Shown one piece after another: positions 4,373 to 35,870 of a stretch of 64,000 nucleotides of DNA. Within the stretch, counting starts at the first letter, position 1. Each line of letters starts with the position of its first letter. The stretch is from Octopus vulgaris (Eukaryota). The DNA is taken from NCBI GenBank assembly GCA_951406725.2, contig OX597826.1, positions 16,988,001 through 17,052,000 of the forward strand, written 5' to 3'. The position numbers were made by a program, and so were the translations under genes. The notes beneath the pieces are model-generated. The model worked only from the letters and a program-made list of their open reading frames with translations. It searched no databases and was not told the DNA's origin.

Positions 4373-4534
4373 GTGCTGGAGTGGATGTGTGGTAAGTAGC
4401 TTGCTTACCAGCCACATGGCTCCGGGTTCAGTCCCACTCCGTAGTACCATGCGCAAGTGTCTTCTACAATAGCCTTGGGCAGACCAATGCTTTGTGATTG
4501 GATTTGGTAGACGGAAACTGAAAGATGCCCATCG
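4372..4534 (+). mobile_element. SINE family A, 5' half (tRNA-like head)
   Basis: gtggatgtgtggtaag (A-box-like), ggttcagtccc (B-box-like); matches the full copies at 12628, 24297 and 46567; ends in (TA)n. Confidence 0.9.
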
Positions 4535-4875: not shown

Positions 4876-7179
4876 ATATACCTCGACACAATTTCAAATG
4901 TTGCCATGCCAATACACTCGACTAAACGCCAAGACGTTGACAGAACGAGAACAGTGAAGAGGTTTTAATAAAAATAGTAAAGTAATACGAAAGTATTGCT
5001 GTCCAGTAAAGAATAGCCCGTGAGGAAAAATTATACATAAAAGCAAATAAATACGACTACGCATTTCGCCCGGCATGCTAACGTTTCTGCCAGTATTAGA
5101 ATTAATATTACACTAATACTATGGAGAAAAGGATATTTTCGACTAACTAAAACCATCTCTTCAATTTTTAATACAAGGGTAGATGCTTATTCCGTAAATT
5201 TAAACGCATCTACTCACTGTATTGAATCTAAAAAGGCTGAATGATTGTCAAGCTTACAAAGATCCGAGCGCAAAATATAGTACAAGAATGATGGATTTTA
5301 CGGATTTGGATAAAATGAAAGTGAAGTGTTAGAATCAGTAAAATGTATTTAGTTTCATGTATTTATACAACTTTGTATGCCGTAGAGAGTAGAGGAATCT
5401 GACGGTTTACAATTGATTCTACTTTTGAGAGATAACTACTCGAAATATTTCTTTTCTGACGGAGGAATGGTTACTTTAAAAAATTCACATTCTGTCTTTT
5501 CTCCGTGATATATGAACACTACTGTATTGTGTTAGCCATGCTTGACGTATGCATTTTCAACCGCATTCTTAGTTGACATTGGAATTAAATATTCCTATGT
5601 TAAAAAATAACAGTCGATAATTTGGGTTCATGTGATCAATTTTTATTTTTTTAAATAACAATTTCTTAATTTGACACAAGAGAAAAGTATTAAAAAAATG
5701 TATTAAATCAGGCTATGTATATAAAGGGTACAGATTTTTACCAAGTCTTGTAAAATGAAGTTTTAAGTGTAACCCGATGAGATGTGAACTTGGGATAAAA
5801 AGAGAGGAATCGCTATTAACAATATTTCCGTTCCGATCTTTTTTTCTAGGTCTTAAGAGACTGCACGTATGTTAGCCGTGATAATACATATACGAAACGT
5901 AAGAAAAAAAATTACTTGTGGGTAATTATTTCTAGTATTGTTGTTGCTTTGGTTCTTATCCTGATTTGCTTAAATCGTAATTTTCCTGAGAAATTGCCAA
6001 ACTTGCTATATCTGTGTGTGCATATATATATATATTGTAAACACACACACACATATAGATGAATATATCATGCGTATATATTTTTTTCTGATTTTCACCA
6101 TTATTACTCTTTTACTTATTCCATTACAATTTCTTCCTTTTCATTTTTTTTCATTCTACTCGATGTTATTATATTCATCACTTTATTGATAACTTTTGTA
6201 TTTACTGTTAGTCTTTCTGCTCTTATCTTTGTTGTACAAGTTTTTTTCTGATCATCTCAGTCTATTGGTGGCACTTTCGAGACTAACCAAAAAATAATTT
6301 TAAGCAAGAAAAATCATTGAGCATTCAATAAAAAAAAGTACTGAAAAAAAAAATAATATGAGCAAAAACTAATAAACATTGCTACGACTAATGCTACCGA
6401 TGTAGTTCCAAAGTGAAATTGAAGATGTCGAAAGTTATGTGATGTTAACAACTCAACATTAAGAATTCAAAGAAATATTTACTTCAAAGTAGATAAAAGC
6501 CTTCAGAGGCCGAAATGTATCCTAAGTAAATATCTTACAGGAAAACATACCTGTGCTGCACACATGTACATTCCTATACTTACACAGCTCACATTCTCTC
6601 AACGTACACTCTTTCTCTCTTTCTCTCTCTCACACACAGTCTCATCTCTTATTCTCACTCTCTCACACATACACACACATATATATGTAAGTACATACAA
6701 AGTCTGTTTGTGGTATGCGTGTGGATGGAAGTAGTTACGCTGCATCACTCTGGATTTGTGCTGCATTGAACAAAAATACAACTTTGAAGTATAGGCTTAT
6801 AATAAATGATATTCTTATGTAAATAACCACCTAGAGCTAAATATGCATGCATCCACACGCACGCACATATATATGCATAGATATAGATATAGATATAGGT
6901 ATAGATATATGTATGTGTGTATGTATGTATGTATGAATGTACATACGCATGTATGTATACATACATATATATAATACATACCCACACACACACATATATA
7001 TATATATACAAACATGTTTATATATGTGTATGTATGTGTATGTATATATATATATATGCAAGTACATATGAATGTATGTATACCATATAGCACATGAATG
7101 TAGCATAAATATTTGCTACATTGTTTTCACAATAGCTTATTTAATGCATATAAAACTATATCAGATTTTTTCTCGATCA

Positions 7180-7261: not shown

Positions 7262-7499
7262 CTGTGTGTGTCTGTGTGTGTATATATATGTTTGTGTGTC
7301 TGTGTTTGTCCCCCCCACACCATAGCATGATGTTGGTGTGTTTACGACCTGTAACTTAGTGGTTCGACAAAAGATATCGAAAGAATAAGAACTATGCTTA
7401 CAAGGAATAAGTCCTGGGGTCGATTTGCTCGACTAAAGGCGGTGCTCCAGCATAACCGCAGTCAACTGACTGAAACAAATAAAAGAATAAAAGAAAGAA
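7180..7499 (+). mobile_element. SINE family A, 5'-truncated
   Basis: gtgagtggatttggtagacgg...(TG)n...ggcggtgctccagcat...ctgaaacaaataaaaga. Confidence 0.9.
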
Positions 7500-7507
7500 T
7501 ATATATT

Positions 7508-7573
<66 letters not shown>

Positions 7574-7673
7574 CACACACAATTGCCGCGTGAAAGTTAT
7601 TTATAAGCCATTTAAAAACACAAAATCGTTAGATTCACTTCAACATTTAAATTTAATTTGCCAAAATATTTTC

Positions 7674-7741
7674 GTCGCTTTGAGACAGCGACCTGTTCAC
7701 TGAATTTTGTCAGTGATCAGGTCTCGCGGTCTCAAAGCGAC
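7674..7741. repeat. Near-perfect palindrome with ~30-bp arms; each arm carries a hammerhead-like GUGANCA core
   Basis: gtcgctttgagacagcgacctgttcactga / tcagtgatcaggtctcgcggtctcaaagcgac. Confidence 0.85.
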
Positions 7742-8260
7742 TAGAATATCCTCAAGCAAATCTGGACAGAACTAAAAGATGAGTTCGTCAGAAGATTCCA
7801 TGCAATCTTGAAGAGCTGTGGGAACTCAGCCACAGCGAACGGTGTCTCATACTTGTGAAGTTGGTGAAAGCATTGTACGCTTCTTTTCTCAGACGCATTG
7901 AAGCAATTATTCAAGCTAAGAGAAACCACACGGAATATTAGTAATGCATCAGTACCTTCTAGAAATGAATATTATGTAATAAATTTTCGTTATACATTTT
8001 TTTTCTGTTTTTAAAAATGGTACCTTGATTGGTTTATGTGAAGTGGCCGAAAACTTTTGCACGGCCATTTTTTGCGGTCATCTCGCATCTTCTCTCATTC
8101 AGAACCCCTACAACAAAACATAAAGATTAGGTATGGAAATGGTTCCAACAGGGACAATGTTGCATCTGTAAAAACGCAATGCGTAACATCCGCTTATAAA
8201 TTGGCAATTAGTAGGATTTAACAATAGTTTAAAGTGGCCGAAGGCTTTTGCACAGATCTG
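7742..8260 (+). mobile_element. Tc1-family transposon right end (transposase C-terminus plus IR/DR-type terminus)
   Basis: Translates ...PCNLEELWELSHSE...LYASFLRRIEAIIQAKRNHTEY*, like the Tc1 SMPRR..AVI.AKGG.TKY motif; direct repeats gtggccgaa..cttttgcac at 8043 and 8234; ends ctg+ta. Confidence 0.8.
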
Positions 8261-10019: not shown

Positions 10020-10800
10020 TAGTGTTAACATCGTCTCATGCATGAGAATATATTCAGGTATCAGTCTTAACCATCAGTCTCTCGGAAGTTTACACAAACT
10101 TTCGATAACAATTTCATTCAGTATGCCACTAGGTTGATCTTTGGATGCTGGGTCAGAATCCATGACTGTTTCTTGTCCTTAAACTCACGCCAGTATTCAC
10201 TCATCCTCTCAGCTAAACTCCTGGATGTCTCCCCAATATATGCTATATTCCTATTGCTACTATGACATGACCCGCCATGCATTTGTTTGGTAAATTACAT
10301 TCCTGAACTTGCACTTAATGTTAGAGTTCAAAGTACGTACAATTCAGTTCCTATCAATATGTATGACTCGTCAAAGGGATACGTCTTACATAACTGTGAT
10401 TTGATGGACCTCTCTGCATTTTCTACAACATTAATGCTGAGTTTAGCTTTCTTCATAGTCTTCCTAGACCTGCGGGCTAACTCCCCATACGGTGTAGACT
10501 CTACAAACATTCCCCTTCGAAATATTGTTTTGTTGAACCTCGTGTTTATTTGGTTTGCTTTATCACCAGTCCCTCCTGGAATTACAACATTTCGGTCGTT
10601 ATGTGTGCTGCCTGTTGAATTTAATGCCCGGATGTCCACAGAGCCACACTGCAATTGATGAAATAACGATATCAATTTTATCGACTGTTTCTTTGTGACT
10701 AAGGGTCATCCTGCAGCATACAGCTTAAGGATGCTTACACTACTTTCAGGCCGGTTGCAATGTTTTATTCTAGATTCTAACAATATTTCAGACGCGTCTG
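10020..10800 (-). mobile_element. Penelope-like element remnant (RT thumb plus GIY-YIG endonuclease)
   Basis: MFVESTPYGELARRSRKTMKKAKLSINVVENAERSIKSQLCKTYPF, then CKFRNVIYQ...AYIGETSRSLAERMSEY; frameshifted. Confidence 0.8.
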
Positions 10801-31291: not shown

Positions 31292-31500
31292 GTGAACGCG
31301 TGTGTACCGTTGGCGATTTTTTCCTCCGTCTTCCCTTCCTTGGATCTTTCCTTTTCCTATATTTCTGACGAAGAGCTCCGCTCGAAACGTTAAATCCTCC
31401 TTCTTTCCTTCTCTCCTGAGCGTCCAATAACACTATACTTGTTCCACGTCCTCGCGTTGTTGTGCTTTATCTTCGTGTTTTCATGTTTGGATTAACTATA
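31292..31500 (+). mobile_element. Hammerhead-bearing repeat, family H1
   Basis: Reverse complement of the 11661 copy; flanked by (TA)n. Confidence 0.85.
31361..31395 (+). ncRNA. Minimal hammerhead ribozyme motif
   Basis: AUUU-CUGACGA-A-GAGC-UCC-GCUC-GAA-ACGU-U-AAAU. Confidence 0.7.
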
Positions 31501-35654: not shown

Positions 35655-35870
35655 GGACTCTAGTAATAGTAATGAAGAAACCGAGAGGAGCATAATGGAG
35701 GGCATCCAACATATATCTGACTCCATCTACCAAAGTATCAAGGTAACTATCGATTACTCGATTAGGCACCTTAACAATAGACTTACTGTCCTTCAAACTG
35801 AACTTTGTTAAGAGACTATGAACAACAGAGTGCAGCCCCTCCACTATTACAAGAAACACATAGCTTGTAA
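35655..35870 (+). mobile_element. Penelope-like RT fragment
   Basis: ERSIMEGIQHISDSIYQSIKVTIDYSIRHLNNRLTVL..HYYKK resembles the PLE RT motif IANSI..I..T.D.PS.H..G..P.LD. Confidence 0.6.

Follow-up and report, generated by a model that had tools for sequence, protein, structure and literature searches.

The question raised by this locus is whether an inverted repeat in a 64,000-nucleotide stretch of Octopus vulgaris DNA (the window; contig OX597826.1, positions 16,988,001 to 17,052,000) holds a natural hammerhead ribozyme whose core pair at positions 3 and 8 has been swapped to G3-C8, and whether such a motif would cut. The original prediction had placed a minimal type I hammerhead of this kind on the minus strand at 7703-7661, and the letters there agreed with it in sequence and position (Table 1). 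We searched with a type I hammerhead descriptor allowing any bases at positions 3 and 8, which gave no match in 742 kb of reversed control sequence; a looser descriptor, which picks up the window motif with its 3-bp stem I, gave one match in 1.27 Mb of reversed control. U4, G5, A6, A9, G12, A13, A14, the A15.1-U16.1 pair and H17 were all present, and the core departed from the canonical C3 and G8 only at these two pairing positions, where the changes restore a Watson-Crick pair. Rfam returned no hammerhead match for the window motif at either threshold. Canonical searches miss this variant, as had been foreseen.

Table 1. Features of the palindromic locus, in window coordinates
Feature	Position	Strand	Basis and remarks
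Stem I strand UCA	7703-7701	-	read from letters
Core strand of the candidate hammerhead, G3-U4-G5-A6-A7-C8-A9 (GUGAACA)	7694..7700; G3 = 7700, C8 = 7695	-	letters and descriptor; family norm
Extra G between positions 9 and 10.1	7693	-	letters; a feature described in PMC4209133
Stem II GUCGC/GCGAC	7692-7688 / 7678-7674 (within 7674..7693)	-	G10.1-C11.1
Stem II loop, 9 nt	between 7688 and 7678	-	loop differs among subfamilies
GAA	7673-7671	-	read from letters
Palindromic stem III AAUAUU	7670-7665	-	letters and descriptor
U17	7664	-	predicted cut after 7664, from hammerhead numbering
UGG, part of stem I 3' strand	7663-7661	-	read from letters
Stem I 3' strand	7657..7663	-	3 bp pairable in the short arm; 7 bp in the parent
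Decayed second hammerhead half, from stem I 5' strand onward	7706..7749	+	letters and alignment
Plus-arm core GUGAUCA	7713-7719	+	letters
Short arm (Penelope-like element pLTR, nt 18 to about 146)	7578..7703	-	89% identity to a natural reference copy
Opposite arm, truncated (pLTR nt 6-55)	7698..7749	+	alignment
ATG opening the parent reading frame	7609..7611	-	about 55 nt past the predicted cut
(TA)n run adjoining the short end, usual target of the family	7500..7569	strand-neutral	letters

Minimal hammerheads of Penelope-like elements (PLEs) are defined by an extra nucleotide, G10.1-C11.1 and a palindromic stem III (Cervera and de la Pena 2014, PMC4209133). These features, with stems I and II at the junction, were present in the parent element described below, so the predicted minimal type I topology held there with an even longer stem I. 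The window copy has the same layout except for its short stem I, whose 5' partner strand did not survive at the inversion junction. The plus arm is in poorer condition: alignment showed two inserted nucleotides in its stem II, UAG in place of GAA at 7742-7744 (a decay recognized in the original prediction), and neither stem III nor the 3' strand of stem I. The minus-strand arm stops at the family's short 3' end, and the remainder of the expected long arm was not found anywhere in the window.

The palindrome itself is real and forms one long hairpin (z = -9.8 and -11.4), but it acts against the hammerhead fold. In parent transcripts stems I and II were predicted to pair with probabilities mostly above 0.9, whereas the window palindrome gave 0. 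The window copy is thus predicted to be unable to fold as a hammerhead. Folding of two molecules gave an extended duplex rather than a dimer hammerhead, a result that carries no information either way. It had been pointed out that, within the core, the two arms differ only at N7; this is true but uninformative, A7 being the family norm and the plus arm being otherwise altered.

A 32-base core pattern with open positions matched the genome 1,633 times, and the first 100 matches had G3 in 98, C8 in 98 and A7 in 99, the matches being partly non-independent (24 of 119 loci represent one insertion amplified within a larger repeat). G3-C8 is therefore the norm of the family and no peculiarity of the window copy. 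The repeat unit is about 205 nt long. Its 5' end is fixed, while its 3' end lies either near nt 145 (short) or at 205 (long); contigs from other samples confirmed these ends. U17 was found in 69/71 intact copies. The GUGANCA core, GAA and the stems, whose conservation in the family the original prediction had asked for, were kept across subfamilies while loop II varied; in a young subfamily loop II differs in both sequence and length, with core and stems unaltered.

Within the family, covariation at 3-8 was not found: among the 91 matches without G3, ten had C3, every one of them with C8, and no C3-G8 copy occurred. The unpaired G3-G8 form was commoner, with 134 pattern matches against 10 for C3, and 97 of its first 100 matches were truly G3-G8. 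Of these first 100, 43 lay on a single contig (C16), 36 of the 100 at about 0.6-10.6 Mb on it, while those elsewhere were separate insertions, dispersed and with several loop backgrounds. This dispersal across loop backgrounds indicates that unpaired templates were copied.

Three loci (L333, L334 and L335) were tandem arrays of a 2.1-2.2-kb unit, with the same palindromic stub in every unit, and 13 successive matches lay on contig C2; the 2.18-kb arrays that we examined are a larger repeat with one palindromic stub per unit. The unit is not a non-LTR retrozyme, that is, a non-coding head-to-tail hammerhead tandem, but belongs to a coding element. Two further tandem candidates (L061, L062) were rejected as they contained no PLE frame.

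That coding element was reached through a 30-codon frame at unit nt 114-203, which matched the start of an Octopus protein; a genome search with this protein led to full-length elements in which the unit continues directly into a long frame. The parent is a 4.3-kb Penelope-like retrotransposon, and the unit is its 205-nt terminal repeat (pLTR). L235 has direct pLTRs spaced 4,261 bp apart (1223-1425 and 5484-5682), each of them G3-C8, on either side of a frameshifted ORF, and in both L235 and L234 the direct pLTRs flank the frame and overlap its start. L233 has an open frame of 1,025 residues with RT motifs and a GIY-YIG endonuclease. Pfam GIY-YIG scored 25.4 bits on the parent frame (cut-off 22.6); Pfam RVT_1 gave no direct match to this frame, its RT motifs being recognized only by pairwise alignment with an RVT_1-positive PLE (E 4e-09). 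Since the unit flanks an RT and GIY-YIG frame and holds its start codon, it is a PLE pseudo-LTR, and the motif belongs to the element's 5' UTR, with the ATG following about 55 nt later.

The association of motif and element was consistent. The endonuclease matched in all 150 scored candidates (81-100% identity), the unit with the G3-C8 motif was present in 30/30 of the best endonuclease loci, and arms downstream of the endonuclease were G3-C8 in 31/31. In 20 older loci, read by eye, the motif occurred in 13 (nine G3-C8, three G3-G8, one G3-U8). The 4.3-kb period, a CX3CxxC linker and C, C, H and H residues seen by eye in the endonuclease differ from the Hydra clade, whose elements are shorter than 3 kb and have a CxCX5C linker but no CCHH, and the linker motif suggests Neptune/Nematis going by the descriptions in PMC8557442. 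A search for sequence continuing past the long end showed none in common among 100 of 248 matches to a pattern that excluded T, the true first base.

Other candidates and families were encountered in this search. Through Pfam GIY-YIG, the sole unit-bearing locus of 30 (L093) proved to be a nested insertion in an unrelated MITE, and a PLE family with 781-residue frames was rejected as the parent because the unit was present in 0/17 of its loci. The latter family (L095-L111, for example L096 with the motif near 4383) is young and has a hammerhead of the U3-A8 type, as does a further family represented by L083, L160, L196 and L312. A MITE-like family (L114-L142), abundant and about 380 bp long, with short inverted ends and located in TA sites, supplied 2,567 first-look candidates.

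The layout of the stubs explains the palindrome. From 119 loci we distinguished 84 independent insertions, 51 of which were two-armed with canonical ends and joined at their 5' sides; 49 of these paired a long with a short arm, two were short with short and none was long with long. Target duplications of 9-14 bp were found in 14/49 long-and-short copies, whereas shuffling the pairings gave 0.35 on average, and in 22/49 the flanks were simple repeats, in which a duplication is unreadable. An inverted 5'-truncated pLTR, a one-sided tail and a variable target duplication, the marks of PLE insertion, are all found here. The window palindrome is this known inverted-pLTR insertion scar and does not speak for a function. 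The two arms had been taken as a sign of constraint, and this does not hold: they are the scar, and neither is intact.

A G preceding the 5' AGATG was found in 14/27 stubs and in 0/59 parent-type copies. This is as expected from cap copying; the alternative is a spliced tiny first exon, because the sequence upstream also resembles a splice acceptor. Upstream of the pLTR start, L235:1190-1225 is conserved and can be read in two ways: a TATA-like box (-30) plus initiator, or a branch point plus splice acceptor.

From this anatomy and the lizard element PAc (PMC11167929), in which RT starts at two internal sites and on both strands, a route to the scar can be proposed. The element's protein would nick an AT-rich target on each strand, the two nicks lying 9-14 bp from one another, and RT would begin inside the element's own RNA at two internal sites, nt ~145 and 205. 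A start in the 5' pLTR would be copied back just to the RNA 5' end, and two such cDNAs on the two nicked target strands, joining at their 5' ends, would give the long-and-short palindrome. Three parent copies (L212, L213 and L214) end near one point about 190 nt beyond the long end, possibly a third internal RT start.

A sister family gives the direction of the swap. Its protein is 54% identical over most of the frame, many of its frames are open over 1,310 residues and asparagine-rich (L242:1442-5380 and relatives), and its hammerhead sits at the same place before the ATG, with the extra G too, a G-C to A-U change in stem II and a stem I of different sequence that still pairs. In the first 100 of its 3,217 matches, C3 was present in 98 and G8 in 100, and position 9 was C instead of A in 96. 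PLE hammerhead motifs of unrelated families in the genome had C-G or U-A at 3-8 in 13/15. Because the sister is C3-G8 and the other PLE hammerheads in the genome are C3-G8 or U3-A8, G3-C8 is the derived state; the natural swap of the original prediction is thus supported for the family as a whole. A tree of 21 endonuclease sequences placed G3-C8 on both sides of the deepest family split and G3-G8 within one branch, with weak support (83/85); one member, L298, is G3-C8 with an altered U4. Old and young subfamilies alike have G3-C8 fixed while loop II varies.

Two readings of the palindrome can be set against these results. It could be a working unit of two ribozymes whose core is conserved by the arms, as the presence of G3 and C8 in both would fit. 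We regard this as very improbable, since one arm has a 3-bp stem I and the other lacks GAA, stem III and the stem I 3' strand, the arms lie on opposite strands and never come together in one RNA, the long hairpin leaves stems I and II unpaired in the prediction, and the layout is that of a common insertion scar. Less credible still is a fold-back MITE, derived from a DNA transposon, whose resemblance to a hammerhead arose by chance. The element is short, palindromic and abundant and lies at TA-rich sites, but its arms are unequal, its central junctions vary from copy to copy, its target duplications vary between 9 and 14 bp, its unit serves as terminal repeat to a frame encoding RT and endonuclease, and the descriptor found nothing comparable in control sequence; the parent loci refute this identity.

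We consider it probable that the stretch is a broken, inverted pLTR stub of a family whose derived G3-C8 core likely retains pairing between positions 3 and 8 and whose cleavage would be slow and limited to full-length transcripts.

The rival that deserves most weight concerns the family rather than the window. A hammerhead-derived motif may no longer cut: with constraint on the core relaxed, two changes would have drifted in successively, and the fold would have persisted as a structure of the 5' UTR or as a site where protein binds. Copied G3-G8 templates speak for such a loss, as do the more than 3,000 copies that the sister reached despite its altered position 9 and the uncut motif inside nearly all stubs. 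So does the lizard element (PMC11167929), where hammerhead mutants left insertion unaffected in vitro and no RNA ends at the cut were seen. Drift does not readily account for a core that departs from the canonical one solely at paired positions and regains a Watson-Crick pair there, for G3-C8 spanning the deepest split and reaching the youngest subfamily while G3-G8 sits within a single branch (weakly supported, 83/85), or for the pair kept in 13/15 hammerheads of unrelated families. A Watson-Crick pair at 3-8 can form as G-C in the main lineage and is absent from the G3-G8 sub-lineage. We hold this loss of cleavage to be possible, though the less probable course.

Cleavage by the family's candidate hammerhead has a somewhat better than even chance. 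It would proceed slowly and solely in tandem or full-length transcripts, perhaps as a dimer through AAUAUU or aided by the element's protein; the hammerhead of the lizard PLE required protein to cut. The window copy is predicted to be a dead stub, with cleavage confined to the full-length element. In a PLE hammerhead, cleavage returns in part with the engineered C3G/G8C pair (PMC11167929), and G3-C8 is reported to work better without C17, given as data not shown (PMC3884650). The caveat that the UUU triplet is suboptimal therefore carries little weight, U17 and the extra nucleotide also occurring in published PLE hammerheads. The near-universal U17 is consistent with co-adaptation to G3-C8 but does not prove it. 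More tentatively, and short of an even chance, a working G3-C8 hammerhead may have been fixed in this octopus Penelope lineage, with U17 co-adapted against a G3-C17 trap and with the G3-G8 offshoot and the A9-less sister completing a natural series. A hand count of arm starts gave 14 at the predicted cut, 5 one base before it and fewer (1, 5 and 3) at the next three positions, but the four positions after those were no poorer in starts (17, 9, 9 and about 22); microhomology confounds all of these counts.

The family shares much with known systems. The metazoan PLE hammerheads of PMC4209133 likewise have type I topology in both pLTRs, the extra nucleotide at 9/10.1, G10.1-C11.1, a palindromic stem III and copies close together on opposite strands; they are C3-G8 or U3-A8, the latter a natural covariant, and the text covered makes no mention of the G3-C8 of the octopus family. 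Natural 3-8 covariation is also common to the hammerheads of Perreault et al. 2011 (PMC3088659), which in the passages covered is U3-A8 only. Poseidon PAc of Anolis (Frangieh et al. 2024, PMC11167929) has a hammerhead at the pLTR-ORF junction, AT-rich targets, two internal RT start sites that define the tail, and both strands cut and extended. Its C3G/G8C form is a partly active laboratory mutant, whereas the octopus swap is natural; its ORF starts inside stem II rather than after the cut, and its tail is 30-40 nt against about 57 nt in the octopus family. Adineta Penelope (PMC3846280) shares the head-to-head palindrome with a tail on one arm, a target duplication (8-10 bp in Adineta) and a pLTR that holds the first ORF codons, whereas the sampled octopus insertions are mostly pLTR arms alone, long with short in 49/51. 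Elements of the Hydra and Chlamys clades (Craig et al. 2021, PMC8557442) share the (TA)n targets, and an extra G after A9 and U17 occur among them, including in an Octopus element; every core listed there is C3-G8, and the octopus family core motif had no match in the part of the supplement covered.

Hammerheads in PLEs, inverted stubs and a natural U3-A8 form had been described before. Lunse and colleagues reportedly collected about 150,000 PLE hammerhead variants in 2017. G3-C8 appeared in the literature searched only as a laboratory mutant, and larger PLE hammerhead catalogues, Repbase and the supplements of PMC4209133 could already hold a natural case; the octopus family is likely the natural counterpart of that mutant. 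The present analysis covered the parent element in full length, a sister family that is C3-G8 but altered at position 9, the offshoot with G3-G8 and the additional G at the 5' end.

If the G3-C8 motif cuts, it would lend natural support to pairing between positions 3 and 8 in the active fold of the hammerhead, reached through two transversions, a path that we did not find reported. Descriptors should then accept any Watson-Crick pair at 3-8, and PLE groups said to lack hammerheads may conceal such variants. Whether it cuts or not, three natural core states, each with an identified coding element, make the role of PLE hammerheads directly testable.

The window held other repeats as well. At about 7330-7495 lies a SINE-like repeat, probably an octopus SINE; similar sequence stood beside many of the loci examined. 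Another repeat family contributed two minimal hammerheads with the canonical C3-G8 core and one extra A apiece, at 31365 on the plus strand and 11806 on the minus strand, and fragments of other PLE frames lay at 10145-10600 (minus strand) and 35680-35865 (plus strand), with 29% and 48% identity to the parent.
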